From positions 4,618,048 to 4,682,047 of the forward strand of contig OZ242167.1 of the NCBI GenBank assembly GCA_965205295.1: DNA of 64,000 nucleotides. The letters run 5' to 3'. This DNA comes from Candidatus Multivorans sp. GTDB lineage: Bacteria; Acidobacteriota; Thermoanaerobaculia; Multivoradales; Multivoraceae. The notes beneath the pieces were generated by a model. The model saw only the letters and a list, made by a program, of their open reading frames with translations. It ran no database searches and had not been told where the DNA came from. The position numbers and the translations under genes are program-made. How positions within the stretch are numbered: the stretch's first letter is position 1; every line of letters starts with the position of its first letter. Shown one piece after another: positions 10,875 to 34,661 of this stretch.

Positions 10875-10877
10875 ACC

Positions 10878-10922
10878 GCTGGCGGCAGCCGCCGCACTGA
10901 CCACGCTCGGCACGTTCTTGCA
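10878..10922 (+). pseudogene. copD-like relic (matches internal copD codons around 13326-13370) fused directly after the copC stop
   Basis: gctggcggcagccgccgcactgaccacgctcggcacgttcttgca aligns with copD gcaagcggctgccgccgcattgaccacgctcggtatgttcaccgc (roughly 34 of 40 identical by eye). The same relic recurs at 21636-21680 and 24248-24292. Confidence 0.6.
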
Positions 10923-10951
10923 CCTTGCGGTTCTTCGCGTCCCGCGGACCG

Positions 10952-12715
10952 CTACGGCTCGCAGCTATCGGCGAATGCCGCGACATCGGTGATCGCGGGG
11001 GCCGGGGCGCCGGGCTCGTTCAGGTACTCCCGGATCTCGCCGGTCACGGTGTCCGTGACCTCGATCCGGTAGCCGAGGTCCGTTGTGGCAGCGCTGAACA
11101 CCCAGACGCGACCGTTCACCTCACAGCCGTCCAGGATCTTGATCAGCGTTTCCCAGTTCTGACTCCTGAAGAACCAGAACATCCCGGAGTCGTTGGTGCC
11201 CCCCCGGACGACGTTGCCCATGCCCGTGCTGCCGTCCTGCGCCGACCAGTGAGTGCGCACCGCGAAGCGGGAGTGCCGCAGGCAGAGCGTCTCGCGGTCC
11301 GCCGTACAGGTCCCGGCCGGGTCGCTCGCCTCGACCAGGAACGTCCGTGAGGCGGTTGACTCCTCGTTGCCGTCGGCGACGGTGAGCGTCACTGTGTAGA
11401 AGCCGGGCTCGCCCCAGGCGCGGCTGCCGGTGGTGGAAGTCGCGCTGCGGTCGTCGCCGAAGCTCCACTCGCGGATGCGCACCGCCCCGGTGCTGGTGTC
11501 GACGAATCGGACGTTATCGCCGGTCAGCGCCCGGCAGAGGTCGTCGGGACAGTCGACGTCGACGGTGAAGGACGCCTTCAACGGGCCGGGTTCAGGTTCG
11601 GGTTCAGGTTCAGGCTCTGGTTCAGGCTCGGGCTGAGGCGGCGGTGGCGACGTGGTGGGCGGCGGCGGCGGCGGTGGCGGTTCTTGCGTCGGCGGGTCCT
11701 GCGGTGGCGGTTCCTGCGGCGGCGGCGGTGGCGGGTCCTGCGTCGGCGGGTCCTGGGTCAGCTCTTGCGTGGTTGCGGAGTCGACGTTCGACGGAGTTCC
11801 CGTGCCGACGGTGTTGATGGCCGAGACCCTGTAGTGGCGGGTCTGGTTGAGCGAAAAGCCGGTGTGGCTGTAGGAGGTGTTCGTGTTGCCCGTGTTGGCC
11901 GCGAGCACGGTCCAGGGGGCGTTGCCGTCGGCGGACCACTCGATCTTGTAACCCGTGATGCGCGCGCCGCCGTTGTTTGAAGGAGCGGTCCATGTCAGGT
12001 CGATCTGCGAGCTTCCGTTCGCCCTCGCCGTCAACGTTGGAGCGCTCGCCACGGCAAGGGGTGTGCTCCTCGGCGCGCCGTTCAGGGCGACCTGAACATT
12101 CCACTTCGACCAGACCTTCCAAGAGCTGCTCTTGGGTACCCATGTGTGGAATGCGTCCGGCAAGCTCCATCCCGTTTCGCCCGGTTCGCCCGTTTCGTAG
12201 TCGGAGTCGATGAGGTCGAAGTACAAATGGTCGGAGGGGGAGAGTGAGTAGAACCTCAGGTGGTAGGTCGTCTCTGGAAGGAGCGCGGTGTCGTCCGGCA
12301 GGGTGAAGGTGACGATGTGGTTGCCCGCCTTCAACCACCAAGGCCAAGGGTCGGGTGGTGAGAGCTCCGCTTCAACCGTTTCGGTGAGGCTCGTTCCGGC
12401 GACGCTGCCCTTGACGAGCGCCACCCTCGGGGTGGGTGAAAACCGTTCGTAGACGTAGACCTTGACCTCGACGGCGGCGAGGTCGTAGCCGTTCGCATGG
12501 CTGCCGGTCGTGAACTCCTGTGCGAAGTCATCTCCGGTCATTGCTTCTTGGCGTGGCTCGCCGATGCTGGAGAGGAACGTGGTCGTCTGGGCGACTGCCG
12601 GCAGCGCAAGCAGCGAGGCGACCGCCGGCGCCGCGAGGACGGCGAGCACACGGGCGTGAGCGATGTTCCACTTGTGGGCGCCCGGCTTGTACCGCGGCGC
12701 CCGAGCGTTGTGCAT
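10952..12715 (-). CDS. Secreted FN3/PKD/Cys-CTD family protein, paralog A (N-module, 1 FN3, Pro-rich + (PE)7 linker, PKD, CTD)
   Basis: Start chosen at ATG 12715 (MHNARAP..ARVLAVLAAPAVASLLALPAVAQ signal), because the family upstream motif sits at 12745-12765. FN3: IDLTWTAPSNNGGARITGYKIEWSADGNAPW..RHYRVSAIN. PKD-like: ASFTVD..FVDTSTG..WSFGDD..GFYTVTLTVADG. CTD: CTADRETLCLRHSRFAV..MFWFF..LDGCEVNGRVWVF..SCEP. Confidence 0.8.
   Translation of the reverse strand: MHNARAPRYKPGAHKWNIAHARVLAVLAAPAVASLLALPAVAQTTTFLSSIGEPRQEAMTGDDFAQEFTTGSHANGYDLAAVEVKVYVYERFSPTPRVALVKGSVAGTSLTETVEAELSPPDPWPWWLKAGNHIVTFTLPDDTALLPETTYHLRFYSLSPSDHLYFDLIDSDYETGEPGETGWSLPDAFHTWVPKSSSWKVWSKWNVQVALNGAPRSTPLAVASAPTLTARANGSSQIDLTWTAPSNNGGARITGYKIEWSADGNAPWTVLAANTGNTNTSYSHTGFSLNQTRHYRVSAINTVGTGTPSNVDSATTQELTQDPPTQDPPPPPPQEPPPQDPPTQEPPPPPPPPTTSPPPPQPEPEPEPEPEPEPEPGPLKASFTVDVDCPDDLCRALTGDNVRFVDTSTGAVRIREWSFGDDRSATSTTGSRAWGEPGFYTVTLTVADGNEESTASRTFLVEASDPAGTCTADRETLCLRHSRFAVRTHWSAQDGSTGMGNVVRGGTNDSGMFWFFRSQNWETLIKILDGCEVNGRVWVFSAATTDLGYRIEVTDTVTGEIREYLNEPGAPAPAITDVAAFADSCEP
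11588..11635 (-). repeat. (GGYTCR)n hexanucleotide microsatellite encoding a (PE)n linker, paralog A
   Basis: gggttcaggttcgggttcaggttcaggctctggttcaggctcggg encodes PEPEPEPEPEPEPEP. Confidence 0.85.
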
Positions 12716-12744
12716 GCAGACAGTTTTGTCTCCATGCGGTTCCT

Positions 12745-12765
12745 TGTCGCCTACAGAACTGCGGG
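12745..12765 (-). promoter_or_regulatory. Family-conserved upstream element (plus strand TGTCGCCTACAGAAYTGCGGG), copy A
   Basis: tgtcgcctacagaactgcggg lies 30-50 nt upstream of the chosen start. The same motif is found upstream of all six paralogs. Confidence 0.55.
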
Positions 12766-12933: not shown

Positions 12934-13013
12934 ATCAGGAGCCCGACGTGCCGCTGAGCAAGCTGGAACTCGAGGGTCCGGCGACCTTCACGATCGACCG
13001 CGGCGGTCGCTGA
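12934..13013 (+). pseudogene. copC 3' relic with an internal deletion, ending in the copC-type stop just upstream of copD
   Basis: atcaggagcccgacgtgccgctgagcaagctggaactcgagggtccg matches copC 10597-10645. It then jumps to ..ttcacgatcgaccgcggcggtcgctga, which matches the copC end. It translates as QEPDVPLSKLELEGP/ATFTIDRGGR*. Confidence 0.7.
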
Positions 13014-13035
13014 ACCGCTGGCAGCTTCTTCGGCA

Positions 13036-13917
13036 ATGAGCTGGGAGATGGCTGGCCGCTGGTCGATCTACCTGCCCCTCCTGCTGGTCTATGGCGTCCT
13101 TGGTCTGCGGCTGCTGGTCGCGGTCCGGGGCGGCGCGCTGTTGGTTCGCGATCCGCGGGTCGGCCTTGAGCGTCTGGGCTGGCTGTCGTCCCTGCTGCTG
13201 CTTGCGGCGCTGCTGCTGCGGGCCGTCTTCCAGTCGGTCGAGGTCTGGGGGCCTGCCGAGGGATTGTCTCTCGAGAGCCTGCGGGCGGTGGCGATCGACA
13301 GCCGATGGGGGAGTCGGTGGCAGTGGCAAGCGGCTGCCGCCGCATTGACCACGCTCGGTATGTTCACCGCACTGAGGCTCCGGGCCTTCGGCTGTCTCGT
13401 CGCCTGGATCGGCGCCCTGGGTGTGGCGGTCGCGCTGCCGATGACGGGCCATGCGTACGGCGACTTGCTGGCCTGGACGGCTCAAAGCGTGCACATCGTG
13501 GGCGCCGGCATCTGGATCGGCACCCTGGTCGTCGTGCTCCTGGTGCCTTCCGGGTTCGCCGGCACTTCGCGGGCGGAGGCGGCGTCGATGCGTCGATACT
13601 GGTTGAGCGCGTTCGCGCCCCTGGCGATGATTGGCGCCTCGCTGCTCGTGGCCAGCGGTGCGCTGCTCGCCTTCCTCTACCTGCCGGCCTGGGAGACGCT
13701 GTGGACGGACCCGTACGGCCGGATCCTCCTGGTCAAGGTCGGGCTGAGCCTGTTCGTGCTCGGTTGCGGCGCCTTCAACTCGGTGGGGCTGCACTTCCGG
13801 CCTGACTTGCACACGGACCCGCTGCCCAGGACCGTCACCTTGGAAGTCGTGTTCGCCCTGCTTGTGCTCGCGGCCACGGGCGTGCTGACGAGCACGGCGC
13901 AGCCCGACATGCACTGA
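13036..13917 (+). CDS. copD: CopD family copper resistance membrane protein
   Basis: 293 aa with about 8 hydrophobic segments. ..LPMTGHAYGD..SVHIVGAGIWIGTLVVV..LLVKVGLSLFVLGCGAFN is typical of CopD/YcnJ-type proteins. It sits directly after the copC relic. Confidence 0.75.
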   Translation: MSWEMAGRWSIYLPLLLVYGVLGLRLLVAVRGGALLVRDPRVGLERLGWLSSLLLLAALLLRAVFQSVEVWGPAEGLSLESLRAVAIDSRWGSRWQWQAAAAALTTLGMFTALRLRAFGCLVAWIGALGVAVALPMTGHAYGDLLAWTAQSVHIVGAGIWIGTLVVVLLVPSGFAGTSRAEAASMRRYWLSAFAPLAMIGASLLVASGALLAFLYLPAWETLWTDPYGRILLVKVGLSLFVLGCGAFNSVGLHFRPDLHTDPLPRTVTLEVVFALLVLAATGVLTSTAQPDMH

Positions 13918-13942: not shown

Positions 13943-15667
13943 CTACGGCTCGCAGCCACCGGCGAATGCCGTGACGTCGGTGATCGCGGGGGCCGGGGCG
14001 CCAGGCTCGTTCAGGTACTCCCGCATCTCGCCGGTCACGGTGTCCATCACCTCGATCCGGTAGCCGACGTCCGTGGTGGAAGCGACGAACACCCAGACGC
14101 GCCCGTTCTGCGCGCAGCCGTCCAGGACCTTGATCAGCGTTTCCCGGTTCGAACTCTCGAAGAACCAGAACATTCCGGATTCGTCGGTGGCCTCCCGGAC
14201 GACGACCCCCTTGCCCGTTCTGCCGTCCGGCATCGACCAGTCGATCCGGACCGCGAAGCGGGAATGTTGCAGGCAGAGCGTCTCCTGGTCCGCGGTGCAG
14301 GTTCCCGCGGGGTCGCTCGCCTCGACCAGGAACGTCCGCGACACGGCGGATTCCCCTCCGGCGTCGGCGACGGTGAGCGTCACCGTGTAGAAGCCGGGCT
14401 CCTCCCAGCCGCGGAGGACGGTGCCCGAGCGCGCAGCGCCGTCGTCGCCGAAGGTCCACTCGCGGGTGCGCACCGCGCCGGTGCTGGTGTCGACGAACCG
14501 GACGGCATCGCCGGTCAGCGCCCGGCAGAGATCGTCGGGACAGTCGACGTCGACGGTGAAGGACGCCTTGAGCGGGCCGGGGTCAGGTTCGGGGTCAGGT
14601 TCGGGTTCGGGGTCAGGTTCGGGCTGGGGCGTCGGCGGGGGCGCTCCGCCTCCCGACGGCGACTCTTGCGTCGTGGCGGAAGCGACGTTGGACGGGGATC
14701 CCGTGCCGGCGGAGTTGATGGCCGAGACCCGATAGTGGCGGGTTTGGCCGGGCCCAACGCCGGTGTCGCTGTAGGAGGTGCTCGTACTGCCGGTGTTGGC
14801 TTCAAGCTCGTTCCAGGGTGCGTTGCCGTCGGCGGACCACTCGATCCTGTAGCCGGTGATCTGCGAGCCGCCGTCGCGCGGCGGGGCGATCCATGCAAGG
14901 TTGATATGCGAGCTGCCGCTCGCCGTCGCCGTCAGGGACGCGGGCACACCCGCGACGACAACCCGGGGCGTCTTCACGGCGATCTGGGCTAGTGGTGAGA
15001 GCGCATACCAGCGGTTGTGAGAGGACTCGAAGTAGTGACGCCCGTTGAGCACGCTCCATCCCGGTTGGCCGGCTTGGTCATGGGAGTGGGTAAGGACCAG
15101 TCCCAGGTCCACGTCACTTGGCGTCGCGCGGATCAGGACGAAGTAGGTCGTGTTTCGGGCGAGTATGGTTCCTCTCGGCGCCGCGAAGAAGTGCGTTTGA
15201 ACGGTCTGGTTGACGGCCGGCCCGGCCAACCAATCATCGGGCGCTTCGAGCGTCGCGACGAGTGTGCCGTCGGGCCGGTCGCGGCGAACCTCCGCTGTCG
15301 CCCTGACGTCTTCGTCGGACTGGAAAAAGAACCTGAGTTCCATCCCGGCGAAGTCGTAGCCCAGTTCGTTGTTGCCGGACGCGAATCCTTGCGCCAGGAC
15401 GCCGGACAAGTCGACATGGCCGGCAATCTGTTGGGAGAGATTCTCGACAAGCGTTGTCGTCTGGGCGGCTGTCGGCGGCGCCAACATCGACAGAACCGCC
15501 GACGCCGCCCATGTAGCGAGTCGAGGCGCACCAAGGCGGTGGAACCGGCCTGCCGTGCGCGGCCCGCCACGCCTATCCACGGCGGGACCGTCGACGGGCC
15601 AATGTCGGCCTTCGCCGGGGTGGTTCCCTTGTCGCCGGAAGCGAAGAACACCAGCAGTCCACACCAA
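13943..15667 (-). CDS. Secreted FN3/PKD/Cys-CTD family protein, paralog B (N-module, 1 FN3, (PE/PD) linker, PKD, CTD)
   Basis: 574-aa ORF from a TTG start; the exact start is uncertain. The signal-like segment RLATWAASAVLSMLAPPTAAQ is followed by TTTLVENLS..AQGFASGNNELGYDFAGMEL, one FN3 module, the PKD-like domain and the CTD (CTADQETLCLQHSRFAVRIDW..GGCEP). Confidence 0.75.
   Translation of the reverse strand: MVWTAGVLRFRRQGNHPGEGRHWPVDGPAVDRRGGPRTAGRFHRLGAPRLATWAASAVLSMLAPPTAAQTTTLVENLSQQIAGHVDLSGVLAQGFASGNNELGYDFAGMELRFFFQSDEDVRATAEVRRDRPDGTLVATLEAPDDWLAGPAVNQTVQTHFFAAPRGTILARNTTYFVLIRATPSDVDLGLVLTHSHDQAGQPGWSVLNGRHYFESSHNRWYALSPLAQIAVKTPRVVVAGVPASLTATASGSSHINLAWIAPPRDGGSQITGYRIEWSADGNAPWNELEANTGSTSTSYSDTGVGPGQTRHYRVSAINSAGTGSPSNVASATTQESPSGGGAPPPTPQPEPDPEPEPDPEPDPGPLKASFTVDVDCPDDLCRALTGDAVRFVDTSTGAVRTREWTFGDDGAARSGTVLRGWEEPGFYTVTLTVADAGGESAVSRTFLVEASDPAGTCTADQETLCLQHSRFAVRIDWSMPDGRTGKGVVVREATDESGMFWFFESSNRETLIKVLDGCAQNGRVWVFVASTTDVGYRIEVMDTVTGEMREYLNEPGAPAPAITDVTAFAGGCEP
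14579..14626 (-). repeat. (GGYTCR)n microsatellite encoding the (PE/PD)n linker, paralog B
   Basis: ggggtcaggttcggggtcaggttcgggttcggggtcaggttcggg encodes PEPDPEPEPDPEPDP. Confidence 0.8.
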
Positions 15668-15693: not shown

Positions 15694-15715
15694 CTGTCGC
15701 CTACAAAACTACGAG
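15694..15715 (-). promoter_or_regulatory. Family-conserved upstream element, copy B (variant)
   Basis: tgtcgcctacaaaactacgagg shares the first ~16 nt with the consensus. Its 3' part is tandemly duplicated (see 15701-15736). Confidence 0.45.
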
Positions 15716-15736
15716 GCGATACAAAACTACGAGGCG
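15701..15736. repeat. 18-bp perfect tandem duplication (tacaaaactacgaggcga x2) overlapping upstream element B
   Basis: Read directly: cctacaaaactacgaggcgatacaaaactacgaggcgatcag. Confidence 0.85.
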
Positions 15737-15761
15737 ATCAGCGCGTGGGGGCTGTAGACCG

Positions 15762-18700
15762 CTACGGCTCGCAGCTATCGGCGAATGCCGCGACGTCGGT
15801 GATGGCGGGGGCCGGAGCGCCCGGCTCGTTCCGGTACTCCCGGATTTCGCCGGTCCCGGTGTCCGTGACCTCGATCCGGTAACCGAGGTCCGTTGTGGTA
15901 GCGCCGAACACCCAGACGCGACCGTTCACCTCACAGCCGTCCAGGACCTTGATCAGCGTTTCCCAGTTCGCGGTGTCGAAGAACCAGAACATCCCGGAGT
16001 CGTTGGTGCCTTCCCGGACGACCGTGCCGTTGCCCGTCGTGCCGTCCGGCAGCCACCAGTCGATCCGGACCGCGAAGCGGGAGTGCCGCAGGCAGAGCGT
16101 CTCCCGATCCGCCGTACAGGTCCCGGCCGGGATGCTCGCCTCGACCAGGAACGTCCGTGAGGCGGTTGACTCCTCGTCGCCGCCGGCGACGGTGAGCGTC
16201 ACTGTGTAGAAGCCGGGCTCGCCCCAGGCGCGGCTGGCGGTGGTGGAAGTCGCCCTGCGGTCGTCGCCGAAGCTCCAGCGGCGTGTGCGCACCGCCCCGG
16301 TGCTGGTGTCGAAGAATCGGACGGCCTCGCCGGTCAGCGCCCGGCAGAGGTCGTCGGGACAGTCGACGTCGACGGTGAAGGACGCCTTCAACAGGTTTGG
16401 CGTGGTGGCGGAGGCGGCGCTCGACGGGGGGCCCGTGCCGGCGGAGTTGATGGCCGAGACCCGGCAGTGGCGGGTCTGGCCGGGCTGCAGGCCGGTGGTG
16501 CTGTGGGAGGTGGTCGGGCTGCCCGTGTTCGCCACGAGATCGTTCCAGGGGGCGTTGCCGTCGGCGGACCACTCGATCTTGTAGCCGCTGATGTCCGCGC
16601 CGCCGTCGTTCGCGGGGGCGGTCCATAGCAGGTCGATCCGGGTGTTCCCGCTTGCCGTCGCCGAGAGCGACGTGGGAGCGTCCGGGGCGACCGCATCGGT
16701 GGTGGCGGAGGCGCCGCTCGACGGGGCGCCCGTGGCGGCGGAGTTGATGGCCGAGACCCGGTAGTGGCGGGTCTGGCCGGGCTGCAGGCCGGTGTTGCTG
16801 TAGGAGGTGGTCGTGCTGCCCGTGTCGGCCACGAGATCGTTCCAGGGGGCGTTGCCGTCGGCGGACCACTCGATCTTGTAGCCGGTGATATCAGCGCCGC
16901 CGTCGTCCGCGGGTGCGGTCCAGCTCAGGTCGATCCGGGTGGTCCCGCTTGCCGCCGCCGAGAGCGACGTGGGAGCGTCCGGGGCGTCCGCATCGGTGGT
17001 TGCGGAGGCGGCGCTCGACGGGGGGCCCGTGCCGACGGAGTTGATGGCCGAGACCCGGCAGTGGCGGGTCTGGCCGGGCTGCAGGCCGGTGTTGTTGTAG
17101 GTGGTGGTCGTGCTGCCCGTGTCGGCCACGAGCTCGTTCCAGGGGGCGTTGCCGTCTGCGGACCACTCGATGTTGTAGCCGGTGATGTCCCCGCCGCCGT
17201 CGTTCGCGGGGGCGGTCCATAGCAGGTCGATCCGGGTGTTCCCGCTTGCCGTCGCCGAGAGCGACGTGGGAGCGTCCGGGGCGACCGCATCGGTGGTGGC
17301 GGAGGCGGCACTCGACGGGACGCCCGTGCCGGCGGAGTTGATCGCCGAGACCCGGTAGTGGCGGGTCTGGCCGGGCTGCAGGCCGGTGTTGTTGTAGGTG
17401 GTGGTCGTGCTGCCCGTGTCGGCCACGAGCTCGTTCCAGGGGGCGTTGCCGTCGGCGGACCACTCGATGTTGTAGCCGGTGATGTCAGCGCCGCCGTCGT
17501 CCGCGGGTGCGGTCCAGCTCAGGTCGATCCGGGTGGTCCCGTTTGCCGTCGCCGAGAGCGACGTGGGAGCGTCCGGGGCGTTCGCATCGGTGGTTGTGGA
17601 GGCGGCGCTCGACGGAGAGCCCGTGCCGGCGGAGTTGATGGCCGAGACCCGGTAGTGGCGGGTGTCGCCGGGCTGCAGGCCGGTGTTGCTGTAGGAGGTG
17701 GTCGTGCTGCCGGTGTCGGCCACGAGATCGGCCCTGGGGGCGTTGCCGTCGGCGGACCACTCGATCTTGTAGCCGGTGATATCAGCGCCGCCGTCGTTCG
17801 CGGGGGCGGTCCATAGCAGGTCGATCCGGGTGTTCCCGCTTGCCGTCGCCGAGAGCGACGTGGGAGCGTCCGGGGCGACCGCATCGGTGGTGGCGGAGGC
17901 GGCACTCGACGGGACGCCCGTGCCGGCGGAGTTGATCGCCGAGACCCGGTAGTGGCGGGTCTGGCCGGGCTGCAGGCCGGTGTTGTTGTAGGTGGTGGTC
18001 GTGCTGCCCGTGTCGGCCACGAGCTCGTTCCAGGGGGCGTTGCCGTCGGCGGACCACTCGATCTTGTAGCCGGTGATGTCAGCGCCGCCGTCGTCCGCGG
18101 GTGCGGTCCAGCTCAGGTCGATCCGGGTGGTCCCGTTTGCCGTCGCCGAGAGCGACGTGGGAGCGTCCGGGGCGTTCGCATCGGTGGTTGCGGAGGCGGC
18201 GCTCGACGGGGCGCCCGTGCCGGCGGAGTTGATGGCCGAGACCTGGTAGTGGCGGGTCTGGCCGGGCTGCAGGCCGGTGTTGTTGTAGGTGGTGGTGGTG
18301 CTGCCGGTGTCGGCCACGAGCTCGTTCCAGGGGGCGTTGCCGTCGGCGGACCACTCGATGTTGTAGCCGGTGATGTCAGCGCCGCCGTCGTCCGCGGGTG
18401 CGGTCCAGCTCAGGTCGATCCGGGTGGTCCCGTTTGCCGTCGCCGAAAGCGACGTGGGAGCGTCCGGGGCGTTCGCATCGGTGGTTGCGGAGGCGGCGCT
18501 CGACGGGGTGCCCGTGCCGGCGGAGTTGATGGCCGAGACCTGGTAGTGGCGGGTCTGGCCGGGCTGCAGGCCGGTGTTGTTGTAGGTGGTGGTGGTGCTG
18601 CCCGTGTCGGCCACGAGCTCGTTCCAGGGGGCGTTGCCGTCGGCGGACCACTCGATCTTGTAGCCGGTGATGTCCCCGCCGCCGTCGTCCGCGGGGGCGG

Positions 18701-24113: not shown

Positions 24114-24136
24114 TCCTAGGCCGGTAGCTACCGCGC

Positions 24137-24157
24137 TGTCGCCTACAGAATTGCGGG
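24137..24157 (-). promoter_or_regulatory. Family-conserved upstream element, copy D
   Basis: tgtcgcctacagaattgcggg lies 76-96 nt upstream of ATG 24061. Confidence 0.55.
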
Positions 24158-24957
24158 CGGCCGCACTCACTTCCGTACGTCGCTGCGGCCGGCGGACTGA
24201 GCGCTACACGGGCAACCTCCGGACAAGCGAGCGGCGGTCGTTGAGCCGCTGGCGGCAGCCGCCGCACTGACCACGCTCGGCACGTTCTTGCACCTTGCGG
24301 TTCTTCGCGTCCCGCGGCTCGCTACGGCTCGCAGCTATTGGCGAATGCCGTGACGTCGGTGATCGCGGGGGCCGGGGCGCCAGGCTCGTTCAGGTACTCC
24401 CGCATCTCGCCGGTCAGGGTGTCCATCACCTCGATCCGGTAGCCGAGGTCCGTTGTGGCAGCGCCGAACACCCAGATGCGACCGTTCACATCACAGCCGT
24501 CCAGGACCTTGATCAGCGTTTCCCAGTTCTGGCTGTCGAAGAACCAGAACATCCCGGAGTCGTTGGTGCCCCCCCGGACGACGTTGCCCATGCCCGTGCC
24601 GCCGTCCGGCGCCGACCAGTGAGTGCGCACCGCGAAGCGGGAGTGCCGCAGGCAGAGCGTCTCCCGATTTGCCGTACAGGTCCCGGCCGGGATGCTCGCC
24701 TCGACCAGAAACGTCCGTGAGGCGGTTGACTCCTTGTTGCCGCCGGCGACGGTGAGCGTCACTGTGTAGAAGCCGGGCTCGCCCCAGGCGCGGCTGGCGG
24801 TGGTGGAAGTCGCGCTGCGGTCGTCGCCGAAGCTCCAGCGGCGTGTGCGCACCGCCCCGGTGCTGGTGTCGAAGAATCGGACGGCCTCGCCGGTCAGCGC
24901 CCGGCAGAGGTCGTCGGGACAGTCGACGTCGACGGTGAAGGACGCCTTCAACGGGCC

Positions 24958-24990
24958 GGGTTCGGGTTCAGGCTCGGGATCAGGCTCCGG
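24958..24990 (-). repeat. (GGYTCR)n microsatellite encoding a short (PE/PD)n linker, paralog E
   Basis: gggttcgggttcaggctcgggatcaggctccgg encodes PEPDPEPEPEP. Confidence 0.75.
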
Positions 24991-25071
24991 CGGAGGTGGC
25001 GGAGGCGGCGGTGACGGCGGTCCTGTGGATGGCGGGTTTGACGGCGGCGGGTCTGGTGTTGGCAGGTCTGG

Positions 25072-28000
25072 CGTGGTGGCGGAGGCGCCGCTCGACGGGG
25101 GCCCCGTGCCGGCGGAGTTGATGGCCGAGACCCGGCAGTGGCGGGTCTGGCCGGGCTGCAGGCCGGTGGCGCTGTGGGAGGTGGTCGCGCTGCCCGTGTT
25201 CGCCACGAGATCGGTCCAGGGGGCGTTGCCGTCTGCGGACCACTCGATCTTGTAGCCGGTGATGTCCGCGCCGCCGTCGTTCGCGGGGGCGGTCCATAGC
25301 AGGTCGATCCGGGTGGGCCCGCTTGCCGTCGCCGAGAGCGACGTGGGAGCGTCCGGGGCGACCGCATCGGTGGTGGCGGAGGCGCCGCTCGACGGGGCGC
25401 CCGTGGCGGCGGAGTTGATGGCCGAGACCCGGTAGTGGCGGGTCTGGCCGGGCTGCAGGCCGGTGTCGCTGTAGGAGGTGGTCGTGTTGCTCGTGTTCGC
25501 CACGACATCGGTCCAGGGGGCGTTGCCGTCGGCGGACCACTCGATCTTGTAGCCGGTGATGGTCTGGCCGCCGTTGTTCGCGGGGGCGGTCCATTGCAGG
25601 TCGATCCGGGTGGTCCCGCTTGCCGTCGCCGAGAGCGATGTGGGAGCGTCCGGGGCGTTCGCCGCGGTGGTGGCGGAGGCGCCGCTCGACGAGGCGCCCG
25701 TGCCGGTGGAGTTGATCGCCGAGACCCTGTAGTGGCGGGTCTGGCCAGGCTGCAGGCCGGTGTCGCTGTGGGAGGTGGTCGTGCTGCCCGTGTCGGCCAC
25801 GAGGTCGGTCCAAGGGGCGTTGCCGTCGGCGGACCACTCGATCCTGTAGCCGGTGATGTCCGCGCCGCCGTCGTTCGCGGGGGCGGTCCATTGCAGGTCG
25901 ATCCGGGTGTTCCCGCTTGCCGTCGCCGAAAGCGACGTGGGAGCGTCCGGGGCGTTCGCATCGGTGGTTGCGGAGGCGGCGCTCGACGGGGCGCCCGTGC
26001 CGGCGGAGTTGATGGCCGAGACCTGGTAGTGGCGGGTCTGGCCGGGCTGCAGGCCGGTGTTGTTGTAGGTGGTGGTGGTGCTGCCGGTGTCGGCCACGAG
26101 CTCGTTCCAGGGGGCGTTGCCGTCGGCGGACCACTCGATGGTGTAGCCGGTGATGTCCCCGCCGCCGTCGTCCGCGGGTGCGGTCCATTGCAGGTCGATC
26201 CGGGTGTTCCCGTTTGCCGTCGCCGAGAGCGACGTGGGAGCGTCCGGGGCGTTCGCATCGGTGGTTGCGGAGGCGCCGCTCGACGGGGCGCCCGTGGCGG
26301 CGGAGTTGATGGCCGAGACCTGGTAGTGGCGGGTCTGGCCGGGCTGCAGGCCGGTGTTGTTGTAGGTGGTGGTGGTGCTGCCGGTGTCGGCCACGAGCTC
26401 GGTCCAGGGGGCGTTGCCGTCGACGGACCACTCGATCCTGTAGCCGGTGATATCAGCGCCGCCGTCGTCCGCGGGGGCTGTCCAGCTCAGGTCGATCCGG
26501 GTGTTCCCGCTTGCCGTCGCCGAGAGCGACGTGGGAGCGTCCGGGGCGTCCGCATCGGTGGTTGTGGAGGCGGCGCTCGACGGGGCGCCCGTGCCGGTGG
26601 AGTTGATCGCCGAGACCCGGTAGTGGCGGGTGTCGCCGGGCTGCAGGCCGATGTCGCTGTAGGAGGTGATCGCGCTGCCCGTGTTCGCCGCGACATCGTT
26701 CCAGGGGGCGTTGCCGTCGGCGGACCACTCGATCTTGTAGCCGGTGATGCTCGCGCCGCCGTCGTTCGCGGGGGCTGTCCAGCTCAGGTCGACCTGGGTG
26801 GTCCCGCTTGCCGCCGCCGAGAGCGACGTGGGAGCGTCCGGGGCGTTCGCATCGGTGGTTGCGGAGGCGGCGCTCGACGGGGAGCTCGTGCCGCCTGAGT
26901 TGATGGCCGAGACCTGGTAGTGGCGGGTCTGGCCGGGCTCCAGGTTGGCGTTGTTGTAGGTGGTGGTGGTGCTGCCGGTGTCGGCCACGAGCTCGGTCCA
27001 GGGGGCGTTGCCGTCGGCGGACCACTCGATCTTGTAGCCGGTGATGTCCGCGCCGCCGTCGTTCGCGGGGGCGGTCCAGCTCAGGTCGATCCGGGTGGTC
27101 CCGTTTGCCGCCGCCGAGAGCGACGTGGGAGCGTCCGGGGCGTTCGCAGCGGTGGTTGCGGAGGCGGCGCTCGACGGGGAGCTCGTGCCGCCTGAGTTGA
27201 TGGCCGAGACCTGGTAGTGGCGGGTCTGGCCGGGCTCCAGGTTGGCGTTGCTGTAGGAGGTGGCCGTGCTGCCCGTGTCGGCCACGAGCTCGTTCCAGGG
27301 GGCGTTGCCGTCGGCGGACCACTCGATCCTGTAGCCGCTGATGTCCCCGCCGCCGTTGTTCGCGGGGGCGGTCCATTGCAGGTCGATCTGGGTGTTCCCG
27401 TTTGCCGTCGCCGAGAGCGACGTGGGAGCGTCCGGGGCGTCCGCATCGGTGGTTGTGGAGGCGGCGCTCGACGGGGCGCCCGTGCCGGCGGAGTTGATGG
27501 CCGAGACCTGGTAGTGGCGGGTCTGGCCGGGCTCCAGGCCGGTGTTGTTGTAGGTGGTGGTGGTGCTGCCGGTGTCGGCCACGAGCTCGGTCCAGGGGGC
27601 GTTGCCGTCGGCGGACCACTCGATCTTGTAGCCGGTGATGCTCGCGCCGCCGTCGTCCGCGGGGGCGGTCCAGCTCAGGTCGATCCGGGTGGTCCCGTTT
27701 GCCGTCGCCGAAAGCGACGTGGGAGCGTCCGGGGCGTTCGCATCGGTGGTTGCGGAGGCGGCGCTCGACGGGGCGCCCGTGCCGGCGGAGTTGATGGCCG
27801 AGACCTGGTAGTGGCGGGTCTGGCCGGGCTGCAGGCCGGTGTTGTTGTAGGTGGTGGTGGTGCTGCCGGTGTCGGCCACGAGCTCGTTCCAGGGGGCGTT
27901 GCCGTCGGCGGACCACTCGATGGTGTAGCCGGTGATGACCCCGCCGCCGTCGTCCGCGGGTGCGGTCCAGCTCAGGTCGATCCGGGTGGTCCCGTTTGCC

Positions 28001-31000
28001 GTCGCCGAGAGCGACGTGGGAGCGTCCGGGGCGTTCGCATCGGTGGTTGTGGAGGCGGCGCTCGACGGGGCGCCCGTGCCGGCGGAGTTGATGGCCGAGA
28101 CCTGGTAGTGGCGGGTCTGGCCGGGCTGCAGGCCGGTGTTGTTGTAGGTGGTGGTGGTGCTGCCGGTGTCGGCCACGAGCTCGGTCCAGGGGGCGTTGCC
28201 GTCGACGGACCACTCGATCTTGTAGCCGGCGATGTCCGCGCCGCCGTCGTCCGCGGGTGCGGTCCAGCTCAGGTCGATCCGGGTGGTCCCGCTTGCCGTC
28301 GCCGAGAGCGACGTGGGAGCGTCCGGGGCGTTCGCATCGGTGGTTGCGGCGGCGGCGCTCGACGGGGCGCTCGTGCCGCCTGAGTTGATGGCCGAGACCT
28401 GGTAGTGGCGGGTCTGGCCGGGCTCCAGGTTGGCGTTGCTGTAGGAGGTGGCCGTGCTGCCCGTGTCGGCCACGAGCTCGTTCCAGGGGGTGTTGCCGTC
28501 GGCGGACCACTCGATCTTGTAGCCGCTGATGTCCCCGCCGCCGTTGTTCGCGGGGGCGGTCCATTGCAGGTCGATCCGGGTGTTCCCGTTTGCGGTCGCC
28601 GAGAGCGACGTGGGAGCGTCCGGGGCGTCCGCATCGGTGGTTGCGGAGGCGACGCTCGACGAGGCGCCCGTGCCGGCGGAGTTGATGGCCGAGACCCTGT
28701 AGTGGCGGGTCTGGGCGGGCTGCAGGCCGGTGTCGCTGTGGGAGGTGGTCGTGCTGCCCGTGTCGGCCACGAGCTCGGCCCAGGGGGCGTTGCCGTCGGC
28801 GGACCACTCGATCTTGTAGCCGGTGATGCTCGCGCCGCCGTCGTTCGCGGGGGCGGTCCAGTTCAGGTCGATCCGGGTGGTCCCGCTTGCCGCCGCCGAG
28901 AGCGACGTGGGAGCGTCCGGGGCGTTCGCAGCGGTGGTTGCGGAGGCGCCGCTCGACGGGGAGCTCGTGCCGCCTGAGTTGATGGCCGAGACCTGGTAGT
29001 GGCGGGTCTGGCCGGGCTCCAGGTTGGCGTTGCTGTAGGAGGTGGCCGTGCTGCCCGTGTCGGCCACGAGCTCGTTCCAGGGGGTGTTGCCGTCGGCGGA
29101 CCACTCGATCCTGTAGCCGGTGATATCAGCGCCGCCGTCGTCCGCGGGTGCGGTCCAGCTCAGGTCGATCCGGGTGGTCCCGTTTGCCGCCGCCGAGAGC
29201 GACGTGGGAGCGTCCGGGGCGGCCGCATCGGTGGTTGCGGAGGCGGCGCTCGACGGGGTGCCCGTGCCGGCGGAGTTGATGGCCGAGACCCTGTAGTGGC
29301 GGGTCTGGGCGGGCTGCAGGCCGGTGTCGCTGTGGGAGGTGGTCGTGCTGCCCGTGTCGGCCACGAGATCGTTCCAGGGGGCGTTGCCGTCGGCGGACCA
29401 CTCGATCTTGTAGCCGGTGATGTTCTCGCCGCCGTCGTCCGCGGGGTGCGGTCCAGCTGCAGGTCGATCCGGGTGGTCCCGCTTGCCGTCGCCGAGAGCG
29501 ACGTGGGAGCGTCCGGGGCGGTGGCTTGCGCATCGGTGGTTGCGGAGGCGACGCTCGACGGGACGCCCGTGCCGGCGGAGTTGGTGGCCGAGACCCGGTA
29601 GTGGCGGGTCTGGGCGGGCTGCAGGCCGGTGTCGCTGTGGGAGGTGGTCGTGCTGCCTGTGTCGGCCACGAGATCGGCCCAGGGGGCGTTGCCGTCGGCG
29701 GACCACTCGATCCCGTAGCCGGTGATGTTCGTGCCGCCGTTGTTCGCGGGGGCGGTCCATTGCAGGTCGATCTGGGTGGTCCCGCTTGCCGTCGCCGACA
29801 GCGACGTGGGAGCGTCCGGGGCGACCGCATCGGTGGTTGCGGAGGCGACGCTCGACGGGGCGCCCGTGGAGGTGGAATTGATGGCCGAGACCCTGTAGTG
29901 GCGGGTCTGGCCGGGCCGCAGGCCGCTGTTGCTGTAGGTGGTGGTGGTGCTGCCGGTGTCGGCCACGAGCTCGTTCCAGAGGGCGTTGCCGTCGGCGGAC
30001 CACTCGATCTTGTAGCCGGTGATGGCCCCGCCGCCGTCGTCCGCGGGTGCGGTCCAGCTCAGGTCGATCCGGGTGGTCCCGTTTGCCGCCGCCGAGAGCG
30101 ACGTGGGAGCGTCCGGGGCGGCCGCATCGGTGGTTGCGGAGGCGGCGCTCGACGGGGTGCCCGTGCCGGCGGAGTTGATGGCCGAGACCCTGTAGTGGCG
30201 GGTCTGGGCGGGCTGCAGGCCGGTGTCGCTGTGGGAGGTGGTCGTGCTGCCCGTGTCGGCCACGAGATCGTTCCAGGGGGCGTTGCCGTCGGCGGACCAC
30301 TCGATCTTGTAGCCGGTGATGTTCTCGCCGCCGTCGTCCGCGGGTGCGGTCCATTGCAGGTCGATCCGGGTGGTCCCGCTTGCCGTCGCCGAGAGCGACG
30401 TGGGAGCGTCCGGGGCGGTGGCTTGCGCAGCGGTGGTGGCGGAGGCGACGCTCGACGGGACGCCCGTGCCGGCGGAGTTGGTGGCCGAGACCCGGTAGTG
30501 GCGGGTCTGGGCGGGCTGCAGGCCGGTGTCGCTGTGGGAGGTGGTCGTGCTGCCTGTGTCGGCCACGAGATCGGCCCAGGGGGCGTTGCCGTCGGCGGAC
30601 CACTCGATCCCGTAGCCGGTGATGTTCGTGCCGCCGTTGTTCGCGGGGGCGGTCCATTGCAGGTCGATCTGGGTGGTCCCGCTTGCCGTCGCCGACAGCG
30701 ACGTGGGAGCGTCCGGGGCGACCGCATCGGTGGTTGCGGAGGCGACGCTCGACGGGGCGCCCGTGGAGGTGGAATTGATGGCCGAGACCCTGTAGTGGCG
30801 GGTCTGGCCGGGCCGCAGGCCGCTGTTGCTGTAGGTGGTGGTGGTGCTGCCGGTGTCGGCCACGAGCTCGTTCCAGAGGGCGTTGCCGTCGGCGGACCAC
30901 TCGATCTTGTAGCCGGTGATGGCCCCGCCGCCGTCGTCCGCGGGTGCGGTCCAGCTCAGGTCGATCCGGGTGGTCCCGTTTGCCGTCGCCGAGAGCGACG

Positions 31001-31015
31001 TGGGAGCGGCCGGGG
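25072..31015 (-). repeat. Coding tandem repeat array, about 20 units of 297 bp (FN3 modules), paralog E. It contains a near-perfect ~0.9 kb (3-unit) duplication at about 29.14-30.04 and 30.04-30.94 kb
   Basis: 5944 bp divided by 297 is 20.0. Position 29161 onward matches 30060 onward (offset 899 = 897 + the 2 extra nt), with only a few mismatches seen. Confidence 0.85.
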
Positions 31016-32603
31016 GGGCGACGGTGTTGGATTTGAGGTGGCCGTTGATGGCGATCAGCAGGGAATGAGTGGTGGCGTTCATCCACACTGTCCCGTCCCC
31101 GTCCTCCGGCGTTTGCAGGTAGCGGTCCGCCACTCTCCACCCGGGCTCGCCCGTTTGGTCGTTGCTTGCATTTATTGCGGCGTTCCAACCGTAGTCACCT
31201 TTGTCGATTCTCAGAAAGTAGCCCGTCTCCGCAACGAGCGTGATCCCCGACGGCGCCGTGTAACTTATGTTCGTGTAGGTCCCCGTGGTTCCCTCCAGGC
31301 TTCCGGTAGGCGCTTCGAGCGTTGCCGTGACCGTTCCGTTGGGGCTGCTGCCGCTGATTATCTTCACGGTCGGATAGGTCCTTGAGCCGGCGTTGAGCCG
31401 GACCCTGATCTCGGCGCCGCTCAGTGTGTAGCCGAGGGCGTTGGTGCCGGCCTTGAAACCTTGCGCTATGCCGCGAGTGGCAAAAGAAATAGAACGGCCA
31501 TCACCCTCATTGGTATTGAAGACAAGCGGGCTGAACGTGGGAGTGGTGGCGAAGGCGACGTTCGACGGGGGGCCCGTGCCGACGGAGTTGATAGCCGAAA
31601 CCCTGTAGTGGCGGGTCTGGTTGCGCTGCAGGCCGGTGTCGCTGTAGGTGGTGTCCCTGCTGCCCGTGCTGGCCACGAGCTCGTTCCAGGGGGCGTTGCC
31701 GTCGGCGGACCACTCGATCTTGTAGCCGGTGATGGTACGGCCGCCGTCGTTCGCGGGGGCGGTCCAGCTCAGGTCGATCCCGGTGGTCCTGCTTGCCGTC
31801 GCCGAGAGCGACGTGGGAGCGTCCGGGGGGCCCGGAGGGGTGGCGATCTTGCCCTTGACGGCGATTACGGCGGAATTTCCGTTCGCATTGTCAAACCACG
31901 TTTGCGCGGTGTTTTCGGTGGTCTGCTTGGCGGCGTTCGCCAAGCTCCACCCCGACAAGCCCGTGTCACTGTCGGAGGCAGCGAGCCTGACGGCCGTGTT
32001 GTCGTTGTCGTGTTTTTTCCACCTCACATAGTAGGTCGTCGTTGGAAGGAGTGTGATCACCGTCGGCGGCGTGTAAGTGGCGTTGACAGTAGAGAAAGTG
32101 CTGCCGGGAGCCCGCGGAAACGGGTTGGGCGGCGAGAGCGTCACCACGACAGTCCCGTCTGGGGCGCCCTGGACGATGTCCACGGGCGGTACGGTTGGGT
32201 TCGAGTTGACGGTGAGCTTCATCGTGACCTCGCGCAGTTCGTAGCCCGAGGTTTCGCTGCCGGTCGTGAAACCTTGCGCAACGCTCCGGGTGCCCATTGA
32301 CAGATGTGTGGTGTCAGTCTCCGAGGTATTGGAGACAAGCGTGATTGTCTGTGCGACTGCCGGCAGCGTGAAGAGGGCGACGACCGCCGGCGCCGCGAGC
32401 GCGGCGAGCCTGGGGGTGGAGAGGCGACGGCAGGGCACTCGGCCAGCCACCGTCTTGGTGGGGGGGCTAATAGACATCGCGGACTGCCACGCGGTAGTCA
32501 TCTGGTCAGAATGGCGGTCTTGGTCTCCAGGACCGGCACTCTGGGGCGTGTTTTTCCAGGTCCGGCACCTAGATGCTTGAACCATAGGCCCGGAGCAGGC
32601 CGC

Positions 32604-32624
32604 TGTCACCTACAGAATTGCGGG
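32604..32624 (-). promoter_or_regulatory. Family-conserved upstream element, copy E
   Basis: tgtcacctacagaattgcggg(g) lies 103-123 nt upstream of ATG 32501. Confidence 0.5.
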
Positions 32625-32729: not shown

Positions 32730-34391
32730 CTACGGCTCGCAGCTATTGGCGAATGCCGTGACGTCGGTGAACGCGGGGGCCGGGGCGCCAGGCTCGTTCC
32801 GGTACTCGCGGATCTCGCCGGTCCCGGTGTCCGTCACCTCGATCCGGTAGCCGATGTCCGTTGTGGCAGCGCCGAACACCCAGACGCGACCGTTCACCTC
32901 ACAGCCGTCCAGGACCTTGATCAGTGTTTCCCAGTTCGCGGTGTCGAAGAACCAGAACATCCCGGAGTCGTTGGTGCCTTCCCGGACGACCGTGCCGTTG
33001 CCCGTCGTGCCGTCCGGCAGCCACCAGTCGATCCGGACCGCGAAGCGGGAGTGCCGCAGGCAGAGCGTCTCGCGGTCCGCCGTACAGGTCCCGGCCGGGT
33101 CGCTCGCCTCGACCAGGAACGTCCGTGAGGCGGTTGACTCCTCGTTGCCGCCGGCGACGGTGAGCGTCACTGGGTAGAAGCCGGGCTCGCCCCAGGCGCG
33201 GCTGGCGGTGGGGGAAGTCGCGCTGCGGTCGTCGCCGAAGCTCCAGCGGCGTGTGCGCACCGCCCCGGTGCTGGTGTCGAAGAATCGGACGGCATCGCCG
33301 GTCAGCGCCCGGCAGAGGTCGTCGGGACATTCGACATCGACGGTGAAGGACGCCTTCAACGGGCCGGGTTCGGGTTCGGGTTCGGGTTCGGGTTCGGGTT
33401 CGGGCTCGGGTTCGGGTTCGGGCTCGGGTTCAGGCTCGGGTTCAGGTGGCGGAGGCGACGTGGTAGGCGGTGATGGCGATCCTGTGGATGGCGGGTCTGG
33501 CGTCGGCGGGTCTGGCGGCGGCGGGTTCTCCGTGGTGGCGGAGGCGCCGCTCGACGGGGATCCCGTGCCGACCGAAGTGATGGCCGAGACCTGGTAGTGG
33601 CGCGTCGTTCCGGGCTGCAGGCCGCTGTTGCTGTAGGAGGTGTTCGCGTCGCCCGTGTCGGCTTCGAGCGCGGTCCAGGTGGCGTTGCCGTCGGCGGACC
33701 ACTCGAGTTTGTAGCCGGTGATGTCGGCGCCGCCATTGTCCGAAGGGGCGCTCCACGTCAGGTCGATCTGCGTGCTTCCGTTCGCGCTCGCGGTCAGCGA
33801 GGTGGGCGCATCCGGGGCGCTCGCGGAGGTGGTGAGCCTCGCGGCGCCCTTCACGGCCATCTCGTAGATCTTTCTGGCGTTGCTTTGCCACCCGCCCCCG
33901 GCTTCCCAACCATCGTCGTCGATGCTCCAGCCCGGTTCGCCGGTTTGTCCGGTGTATTTGGTACCGTAGATGTACGAAACCGTTTCGGATACGACTACGA
34001 AGTACTTGGTGTTCGGGAGGAGTACGGTTCCCCCGGGGGCCGCGAAGAAGTATGTTTCGATGACCCCGTCGTCGGCTTGCCAATCCGCGGGGCTTTCGAG
34101 GGTCGCGACGAGTGTTCCGTCGTACGAACCGCGGCGAATCTTCAACCACGGGGGGCGTCCGTCCCAGTCCTCGGGCAGAATGTCCCCGGGCTTGTGCCTC
34201 CGTGTCTTGAGCATGATCTCGACGCCGGCCAGGTCGTAGCCCAACTCGTTTCGGCCGGTCGTGAAGCCTTGCGCTTGCGAACCCACGGAGAATTGCCAGA
34301 ACGTGGTTGCTTCGGAAACGTTCTCGACAAGGGTGATCGTCTGGGTGGCGGCCGGCGACGCGAACAGCGAGGCGATCGCCGGCACCGCCAT
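32730..34391 (-). CDS. Secreted FN3/PKD/Cys-CTD family protein, paralog F (553 aa: N-module, 1 FN3, Pro-rich + long (PE)n linker, PKD, CTD)
   Basis: Intact ORF from ATG 34391 (MAVPAIASLFASPAATQ TITLVENVSE..AQGFTTGRNELGYDLAGVEI..). The frame stays open upstream and encodes an n-region-like ..RRRWAGRFSRRGALHLAT, but without an ATG, GTG or TTG. Confidence 0.8.
   Translation of the reverse strand: MAVPAIASLFASPAATQTITLVENVSEATTFWQFSVGSQAQGFTTGRNELGYDLAGVEIMLKTRRHKPGDILPEDWDGRPPWLKIRRGSYDGTLVATLESPADWQADDGVIETYFFAAPGGTVLLPNTKYFVVVSETVSYIYGTKYTGQTGEPGWSIDDDGWEAGGGWQSNARKIYEMAVKGAARLTTSASAPDAPTSLTASANGSTQIDLTWSAPSDNGGADITGYKLEWSADGNATWTALEADTGDANTSYSNSGLQPGTTRHYQVSAITSVGTGSPSSGASATTENPPPPDPPTPDPPSTGSPSPPTTSPPPPEPEPEPEPEPEPEPEPEPEPEPEPEPGPLKASFTVDVECPDDLCRALTGDAVRFFDTSTGAVRTRRWSFGDDRSATSPTASRAWGEPGFYPVTLTVAGGNEESTASRTFLVEASDPAGTCTADRETLCLRHSRFAVRIDWWLPDGTTGNGTVVREGTNDSGMFWFFDTANWETLIKVLDGCEVNGRVWVFGAATTDIGYRIEVTDTGTGEIREYRNEPGAPAPAFTDVTAFANSCEP
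33365..33447 (-). repeat. (GGYTCR)n microsatellite, about 14 units, encoding the (PE)n linker, paralog F
   Basis: gggttcgggttcgggttcgggttcgggttcgggctcggg... read directly. Confidence 0.85.
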
Positions 34392-34558
34392 GGTGGCGAG
34401 GTGAAGGGCGCCGCGCCGGCTGAACCGGCCCGCCCACCTGCGGCGCGATCGCGCGTTGGCAGTGCTGCCCTTGGCCGAGGGGGTGCTCGCCTGGGGAGGG
34501 AAACGAAGGGCCGAAGCAGGTTTCAGAAGGACGGAAGGCTACGAACGGCTTGACTCGC

Positions 34559-34580
34559 TGTCGCCTACAGGATTGCGGGG
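34559..34580 (-). promoter_or_regulatory. Family-conserved upstream element, copy F
   Basis: tgtcgcctacaggattgcgggg lies 168-189 nt upstream of ATG 34391. Confidence 0.5.
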
Positions 34581-34602
34581 CCGTCGCCGAAGACGCTTCC
34601 CG

Positions 34603-34661
34603 TCAGAAGTTGATCCGGCTGCTTGCGCCAAGCCCGAAGCGCGGCCCTTTGTGGCGCAGCC
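34603..34661 (-). pseudogene. Relic of the last ~18 codons of a second TonB-dependent receptor gene
   Basis: The reverse strand reads ..LRHKGPRFGLGASSRINF*. The C-terminus of the adjacent intact receptor reads ..NPPRTIGVSSRISF*. Confidence 0.6.

Follow-up and report, generated by a model that had tools for sequence, protein, structure and literature searches.

The 64,000-nucleotide stretch analysed here (the window, in whose positions all coordinates are given) carries on its minus strand six paralogous genes, A to F, whose products share one predicted architecture: a signal peptide, an N-terminal module of about 170 aa that we call the head, a stalk of fibronectin type III (FN3) modules, a proline-rich or (PE)n linker, a PKD domain and a C-terminal domain (CTD). 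The genes and their associated features are collected in Table 1. Six minus-strand genes had been predicted at this locus from the sequence alone. That description stands for A, B, C, D and F, which are intact open reading frames (ORFs), but E is not a single ORF as assembled. Gene order and strand also stand as predicted, but the array is interrupted, as a plus-strand CopD gene lies between A and B. The reading frame of gene A is open as far as a GTG at 12835, and the ATG at 12715 is favoured by the position of the promoter. Signal peptides judged by eye are of Sec type, with a basic n-region, a hydrophobic core and a terminal AVA or TAA followed by Q, with the exception of F; the closing residues are ..AATQ in F, ..TAAQ in B and ..PAVAQ in the other four.

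Most of the shared blueprint in the original prediction was borne out by domain searches. Pfam model PF00041 (cut-off 25 bits) matched A at 40 bits, B at 44.9, D at 110.7 in three stretches, F at 49.5 and C at 613.5 in 13 stretches, and a motif count in the frame-corrected sequence of E gave 21 modules. These agree with the predicted FN3 counts of 1, 1, 13, 3, 21 and 1 (about 40), and they total 40. The PKD-like domain was recovered as one PKD_4 match (PF18911/PF00801; 36.2–42.8 bits, cut-off 27) each in A, B, C, D and F. The linker, said to be absent from C, is present in all five other proteins and reaches (PE)15 in D. The invariant length predicted for the C-terminal domain holds for the whole tail, which from LKASFTVD to the stop is exactly 209 aa with six cysteines at identical positions in all six genes. 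The length given for E, 2725 aa, equals the frame-corrected one, and the near-identical intergenic units could be confirmed as well: those between C and D and between D and E, 260 nt each, differ at two positions. What that account missed were the frameshift in E, the identity of the head and the lineage-wide spread of the tail cassette.

Table 1. Genes, promoter elements, domains and repeats of the array, in window coordinates.
Feature	Position	Strand	Description
Gene A	10952-12715	minus	intact ORF, 587 aa: signal peptide, choice-of-anchor R head, 1 FN3, Pro/(PE)7 linker, PKD, CTD
Gene B	13943-15667	minus	intact ORF, 574 aa, 1 FN3; most divergent paralog
Gene C	15762-21449	minus	intact ORF, 1895 aa: head, FN3, second head, 12 FN3, no Pro linker, PKD, CTD
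Gene D	21710-24061	minus	intact ORF, 783 aa: C/E-type head, 3 FN3, (PE)15 linker
Gene E	24322-32501	minus	2725 aa frame-corrected: head, FN3, second head, 20 FN3, linker, PKD, CTD; disrupted as assembled
Gene F	32730-34391	minus	intact ORF, 553 aa: own head type, 1 FN3, (PE)14 linker, PKD, CTD
Promoter of A	12722-12765	minus	CCCGCAGTTCTGTAG+GCGACA (-35-like), 17-nt spacer, AAAACT
Promoter element of B	15695-15715	minus	TAGCCT at 17 nt
Promoter element of C	21525-21545	minus	TAGGAT at 18 nt
Promoter element of D	24137-24157	minus	TAGGAT at 18 nt
Promoter element of E	32604-32624	minus	GTGACA, TATGGT at 17 nt
Promoter element of F	34559-34579	minus	TAGCCT at 17 nt
CTD of D (reference copy)	21713-22090	minus	126 aa, 4 Cys
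Other CTD copies	10955-11332, 13946-14323, 15765-16142, 24325-24702, 32733-33110	minus	found with the CTD hidden Markov model
Tandem 297-nt repeat, gene C	16402-19959		12 copies, 95% matches
Tandem 297-nt repeat, gene E	25073-31015		20 copies, 91% matches
Two 1-nt insertions breaking E	near 29446 and 29457	minus	11 nt apart; by comparison with sister repeat
30-nt direct repeat bracketing A	left 12996-13025, right 10857-10886	minus	29/30 identical
CopD-family membrane protein gene	13036-13917	plus	PF05425 CopD, E = 1.1e-12; between A and B

Each of the six genes is preceded by a common sequence element. The motif TCTGTAGGCGACAG, at no more than one mismatch, occurs exactly six times in the window, all on the minus strand, with one copy ahead of each gene, in keeping with the shared cis element predicted earlier. 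The full element is 21 nt long, CCCGCA(A/G)T(T/C)(T/C)TGTAGGCGACA. Searched at up to four mismatches in 1.47 Mb of loci from related genomes, it was found at 12 sites, all on the gene strand and 9–125 nt upstream of ORFs with signal peptides, nine of which end in the CTD; CTD genes of Candidatus Multivorans are among those preceded by it. Its last six bases, GCGACA, are -35-like, and over all 18 sites the pattern TAnnnT follows after 17–18 nt in 10, against a background of 0.4%; on inspection of the tabulated sites, nAnnnT stands at this distance in every one. From the -35-like hexamer and the spaced TAnnnT, we conclude that each gene has its own promoter; the site at E was also flagged by a generic promoter scan. 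The 15 conserved bases upstream of the -35 region hint at recognition by a common regulator or by a specialised sigma factor. A sigma-54 promoter and an integron attC site were considered as identities for the element and set aside on inspection, as spacing and core motifs do not fit either, and the -35/-10 arrangement does. Two local features accompany the elements. The 5′ leader of C holds a perfect hairpin, TTCGAGATTCGAG-TCC-TCGAATCTCGAA (~21465-21492), which recurs with one mismatch in the leader of D (~24077-24104) and in no other. In the promoter region of B (15708-15741), the 17-nt sequence CGCCTCGTAGTTTTGTA is present twice in tandem and overlaps the element's upstream half.

The head had been described as uncharacterised; this no longer holds, since it belongs to a sequence-defined family. 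C and E each carry a second copy after the first FN3 module, which gives eight copies in the six genes, and all eight match NF041539 (choice-of-anchor R; 155-position model, NCBI cut-off 30 bits) at 43.9–70.4 bits, from model positions ~1–19 to 152–154, with gene A at 43.9 bits. The predicted structure of the head is of moderate quality, with a predicted local distance difference test (pLDDT) score of 64. The top Foldseek matches of this model are carbohydrate-binding modules of the CBM6 family (probability 0.9–0.99, E = 2e-3 to 4e-2), weak at template-modelling (TM) scores of 0.25–0.38, and a sequence profile of the head run against the PDB likewise ranks CBM6 first, at weak E-values of 0.05 and 0.18. 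Every one of the weak matches, whether by structure or by profile, is to a carbohydrate-binding module. Pfam searches with isolated heads at E ≤ 10 returned nothing useful and no CBM6 match. The head is probably a lectin-like, ligand-binding β-sandwich, which we offer as a lead and not as a result. A word-indexed homologue search with the head of C gave 104 candidates, none of them significant, and a metagenome scan with the head of D did not find relatives. In one related genome (locus L039, 3864-10381), a 2161-aa gene that has the promoter element and a PKD+CTD end begins with a divergent choice-of-anchor R-like sequence, ..IRTLISNTGQTSS..GIGFTTG.., which suggests that relatives of the array family exist beyond the reach of the head model.

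The FN3 modules form tandem arrays of a 297-nt unit in C and E, and D has a shorter array of 2.9 copies (88%). Units differ from one another by 0.4–12%, and near-identical pairs occur both within and between genes: C8–C10 are 99.6% identical, E2–4 match E5–7 at 99.3–99.6%, and C5/C7 match E12 at 98.2%. The end units are positionally orthologous, C1 with E1 at 95% and C13 with E21 at 97%. By these identities, the FN3 units show the signature of concerted evolution.

Two genes depart from the common plan. Gene E is split into an N-terminal frame (29160-32609) and a C-terminal frame (24322-31188) that overlap by 2 kb. The frames join only when both inserted bases are removed, inside RIDLQ/WTAP/ADDGG (CTGCAG-C-TGGACCGCACCC-C-GCGGAC). 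The break falls in the second copy of a duplication of about 0.9 kb, or three FN3 units, which is otherwise 99.5% identical to its sister 897 nt away; the sister has neither insertion. As assembled, E is either a real pseudogene or a consensus error. In gene F, the first canonical start leaves only MAVPAIASLFASPAATQ as the N-terminus. The upstream in-frame sequence (34392-34460), ..RSRRRWAGRFSRRGALHLAT before MAVPAIASLF, resembles the missing n-region and contains no ATG, GTG or TTG, so that F may either have lost part of its signal peptide or start at a non-canonical codon.

At the other end of the proteins, the CTD proved to be both widespread and without a described relative. Within the window its hidden Markov model has six matches, all inside genes A to F. 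All six proteins end ...AFA(D/N/G)(S/G)CEP without a hydrophobic stretch, and none of the six C-termini has the signature, hydrophobic helix and basic tail of LPXTG, PEP-CTERM or GlyGly-CTERM sorting signals. Pfam and NCBIfam match nothing in the last 126 aa, even at E = 10. An AlphaFold2 model of the domain (pLDDT 89.6) is all-β, with nine strands and a short helix; against the PDB it retrieved nothing at E ≤ 1e-3 (best TM score ~0.3), and a Foldseek search of viral structures gave no match. In species-representative genomes the CTD profile matches at least 545 places, and the best 80 of these matches fall nearly all in Multivorans, Multivoraceae, Thermoanaerobaculia or Holophagales. Among 1.84 billion representative proteins, it finds 10,127 clusters at E ≤ 1e-3 and 8,868 at E ≤ 1e-10.

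In related genomes the CTD terminates ORFs of 142–2618 aa, about two-thirds of which exceed 1,000 aa and many of which have a recognisable signal peptide, and same-strand arrays of two to five CTD genes are common in the loci retrieved. A proline-rich linker and a PKD domain precede the CTD in 39 of 39 large ORFs sampled from Multivorans and other Thermoanaerobaculia. The other domains of these ORFs vary: Calx-beta occurs in 23, fn3 in 11, Big_9 in 7 and LRR in 5, and cassette ORFs also carry trypsin-like, subtilase, reprolysin, M14 and M10 peptidases, sulfatases and an arylsulfotransferase. On this distribution, we regard the linker-PKD-CTD cassette as a common lineage-wide tail that is not private to the array family. 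Short PKD+CTD proteins of about 200 aa were considered as a free-standing family and rejected, since some are truncated at contig ends and long-read genomes place the cassette on large proteins. One Multivorans chromosome (L001, 10001-10633) has a stand-alone 210-aa PKD+CTD gene without a signal peptide, followed by a prepilin-type (N_methyl) gene (10755-11339) and then two large CTD-bearing Calx-beta proteins.

Heads and tails of the six genes have had different histories. At the DNA level, the tails (last 603 nt) are 85–99% identical among all six genes, with D and F at 98.7%, and the heads (first 660 nt) are 65–72% identical, with C, D and E at 88–94% among themselves. Gene D is a mosaic, with a C-like head and an F-like tail. 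As protein, the tail of B is 78–79% identical to the other five, and that of E is 88–89% identical to A, C, D and F and 79% to B. Synonymous divergence is 0.03–0.28 for the tails against ~1.1 for the heads of A, B and F, indicating that tails were homogenised or recently exchanged. Among C, D and E, the ratio of non-synonymous to synonymous changes per site (pN/pS), a Nei-Gojobori estimate in which a strong G+C bias at third codon positions is uncorrected, is 2.0–2.4 for the heads, 0.1–0.7 for the signal peptides and 0.4–1.1 for the tails. Between C and D, the head has 32 non-synonymous and 5 synonymous differences versus 13 and 11 in the tail (Fisher p = 0.006). These estimates are rough, but they point to heads under diversifying selection. 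A reading of the array as a set of silent cassettes for antigenic variation was rejected, as each copy has its own promoter and signal peptide.

Comparison with an unoccupied locus bears on the origin of the array. Both of its flanks are syntenic, at 68–92% amino-acid identity, with the JGI contig Ga0209543_1001439 (L096). On that contig the genes for a TonB-dependent receptor, CopD and Nramp are direct neighbours, and CTD, head module and promoter element are all absent. The array is therefore a lineage-specific insertion and expansion. By the gene order in L096, gene A sits in the former CopD-Nramp spacer and genes B to F, 20.7 kb in all, sit in the former 72-nt gap between the receptor and CopD; the CopD gene, lying between receptor and Nramp at the empty site, is ancestral and outside the array family. 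The 30-nt direct repeat that brackets A is single-copy between CopD and Nramp in L096 (~12327-12357). A 23-nt core of it also occurs in the 3′ flanks of D (21619-21641) and E (24231-24253), within a flank of about 90 nt that follows the stop codons of A, D and E; F has only the first 22 nt of this flank and no core. From the position of the core within the shared flank, a unit at the A position was probably the template from which new units, together with their flank, were copied. We found no orthologues of the six genes among species representatives, where the best CTD identity was 68–70%, and no exact match to the gene D protein on record; tblastn of the flanking proteins of the window against 77 related loci showed no syntenic array. 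Taken with the empty site, the array is by comparison accessory and recent. One close relative, the ENA contig ctg556127_5x_l (L077), is a low-coverage linear contig of 58,052 bp that is syntenic with the window at 40–60 kb; its end is expected, by distance, near the start of the array and could be an assembly break at the repeats.

A pyrroloquinoline quinone (PQQ) dehydrogenase in the flank is 95% identical to one on L077 and 92% identical to one on chromosome OZ244152.1, a metagenome-assembled genome (MAG) of Candidatus Multivorans. Judging by these identities, the window is from a Candidatus Multivorans-like bacterium (Acidobacteriota, Thermoanaerobaculia). The closest CTD homologues with a named source are mostly Holophagales MAG bins SB06xx, a series that we take to be sponge-derived and that does not establish the host of the window. 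Contig names, too, agree with metaMDBG assemblies of the kind made in sponge holobiont projects. The earlier extension of the sponge-symbiont pattern to this organism is supported only indirectly, through the kinship of the PQQ dehydrogenase to the Candidatus Multivorans MAG and through the source of these CTD homologues, and is not proven for the window.

A TonB-dependent receptor gene lies directly upstream of F, the NCBIfam models matched only an amidase and, weakly, PhoD among ten flanking ORFs, and an Rfam search of the whole window had no match. G+C content is 67–72%. Strand skew is strong at 16000-32000, with GC skew reaching 0.20 and AT skew falling to -0.38, which is due to the FN3 coding repeats and is no replication feature. 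Three kilobases from the array, on the minus strand (37670-39310), is a 546-aa ORF with no Pfam or NCBIfam match. Its paralogs, at 36–38% identity, adjoin CTD genes in three related loci (L050, L061 and L011), and L096 has another at 48%; the association may be fortuitous or functional.

The array's architecture, with its signal peptides, head, repeats, stiff spacer and terminal cassette, fits secreted or surface binding proteins, so that the adhesin or binding repertoire first proposed for the locus stands as to architecture, and binding itself is inferred. Starting from the observed architecture, promoter structure, mosaic identity, empty site and cassette distribution, we consider it probable that the six independently transcribed genes are a recently expanded, lineage-specific family of Periscope-like stalked binding proteins in which the CTD binds or anchors. 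Each product would be exported through Sec. One or two choice-of-anchor R heads would bind ligand, presented at a set distance by a rod of 1–21 near-identical FN3 modules. Below the rod would follow a rigid Pro/(PE)n spacer, PKD and a cysteine-stabilised all-β CTD, and this cassette would most likely retain the protein at the cell surface or on an extracellular matrix by non-covalent binding. At about 3.5 nm per FN3 module, the six proteins would between them carry four or five kinds of head, held out over distances of ~4–75 nm. The family would have evolved as complete units of promoter, gene and flank were duplicated in tandem, as the 297-nt repeats underwent unequal crossing-over, as gene conversion acted on the tails and as the amino-acid sequence of the heads changed at a faster pace. 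That the proteins bind a ligand, stay at the surface, are co-regulated and benefit a host-associated life is inferred in this proposal.

Several observations weigh against it. No outer-membrane export route was identified for the array proteins. The CTD resembles nothing of known function, so its anchoring role is assigned by analogy. The structural model of the head is of no more than moderate quality, with CBM6 matches that fall short of significance, and the pN/pS estimates are rough and only borderline significant on their own. With a single FN3 module in A, B and F, stalk-length variation there compares paralogs and not alleles. Finally, with E broken and F perhaps without a working signal peptide, the functional genes may number four or five at most.

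A more far-reaching version can be put forward only tentatively. In it, the cassette and the promoter together would make up an undescribed surface-display system of Thermoanaerobaculia, in which a disulfide-bonded CTD, a 126-aa β-domain of apparently new fold, tethers a large and varied exoproteome, with adhesins, proteases and sulfatases among it, to the cell envelope or to host matrix, and the array would be one rapidly diversifying adhesin module of that system, with positively selected heads.

We considered three rival readings, each of which we judge less well supported than the stalked-binding one. The most serious, although unlikely, is that the CTD is a secretion or sorting tag like that of the type IX secretion system (T9SS), that a dedicated outer-membrane machine exports the cargo and either removes the tag or attaches the cargo covalently, and that the six proteins are such cargo. 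The same terminal cassette is indeed found on many unrelated signal-peptide proteins, in many copies per genome (at least 24 in the loci retrieved from chromosome OZ242222.1), and in the 150 best representatives the last CTD copy ends within 25 aa of the C-terminus in 132. The name choice-of-anchor, too, refers to alternative C-terminal sorting signals. However, 146 of these 150 proteins have two CTD copies and the other 4 have four, and the CTD follows directly after the signal peptide in 10 and is internal in 8; such a spread of positions is easier to reconcile with a module that binds or anchors from a protein terminus than with a secretion tag that must be C-terminal. Nor does the domain resemble T9SS models or any solved structure, and candidate machinery was not identified.

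Rather improbable, in our view, is that the proteins are secreted polysaccharide or matrix binders that serve nutrient capture with the adjacent TonB-dependent receptor, their stalk length being meaningless. The weak CBM6 resemblance of the head, the receptor gene next to F and the presence of the cassette on sulfatases, proteases and an acetylesterase would agree with such a role. Yet the receptor gene is ancestral, being present at the empty site in L096, which makes its adjacency incidental, and Pfam found a catalytic domain in none of the six proteins. High DNA identity over 12 and 20 repeats is, moreover, the pattern of length-variable surface stalks (PMC8201768). That the array is wholly or partly a product of misassembly, with fewer genes and with repeats mis-joined or mis-counted, could draw on the near-identical 260-nt intergenic units, the D and F tails, the frameshift-bearing duplication in E and the apparent end of L077 near the array start, but it is highly improbable given that head, linker and junction sequences are distinct in each gene, that the repeat units differ in a structured way and that same-strand CTD arrays recur in related genomes, mostly MAG chromosomes of 3.7–5.4 Mb.

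The locus bears on how uncultivated sponge symbionts attach to and deal with their hosts, which so far has been inferred largely from counts of “eukaryote-like” domains. A family with variable heads on graded stalks, gained or lost between close relatives, is the pattern expected at a host or community interface, and its promoter element could define a regulon of exported proteins. The uncurated CTD, with its more than 10,000 clusters, seems to label what a whole bacterial class exports. Should it anchor, it would account for the retention of enzymes and adhesins at the surface of these diderms, and it would provide a simple sequence handle for surface-proteome prediction.

Among known systems, terminal surface-binding modules such as SLH domains and the lipopolysaccharide-binding N-terminal domain of Caulobacter RsaA resemble the CTD in their terminal position at either end, their tandem copies and their occurrence on many different exoproteins, with no homology. 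T9SS cargo of Bacteroidota is alike in that one terminal domain, with PKD immediately before it, is found on dozens of unrelated exported enzymes and adhesins. The differences are that the array CTD has no sequence or structural similarity to it, that the phylum is another and the machinery not known, and that a T9SS domain would be expected as a single, strictly C-terminal copy, whereas the CTD occurs in tandem and, in some proteins, N-terminally. The CTD matches no Pfam or NCBIfam model, those for T9SS sorting domains (TIGR04183, PF18962) included. Domains of RTX or type I-secreted giant adhesins and of autotransporters were absent from the array proteins in Pfam and NCBIfam searches. With the choice-of-anchor R family, which is sequence-defined, the array shares eight heads that match over nearly full length; it differs in its uncurated tail and in the duplicated head of C and E. 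PMC9531527, which cites Reynolds & Thomas 2016, reports that sponge symbionts are enriched in FN3, cadherin, LRR and Calx-beta domains. The same domains carry the cassette in this lineage; reports on FN3-rich eukaryotic-like proteins of sponge microbiomes are domain-count enrichments, whereas here a gene family, its promoter, its cassette and its dynamics are resolved.

The closest overall likeness is to the Periscope Proteins and fibrillar adhesins, among them SasG/Aap, Rib, Sgo_0707 and CdrA (PMC8201768, PMC9704523, PMC9210967). As in those proteins, an N-terminal putative binding domain is followed by a rod of tandem domains with high DNA identity and by a putative C-terminal attachment end, and repeat number differs, here 12 against 20 between the sister genes C and E. 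Their tandem array is found in C, in E and, at 2.9 copies, in D, but not in A, B and F. Three features set the array apart: it belongs to a diderm acidobacterium, and neither LPXTG nor any other known anchor is present; its members of different length are paralogs within one genome; and the putative attachment end is the PKD+CTD cassette. What appear to be unusual are thus a co-resident series of paralogs graded in length, each with its own promoter, diversifying heads and an undescribed, putative attachment cassette.

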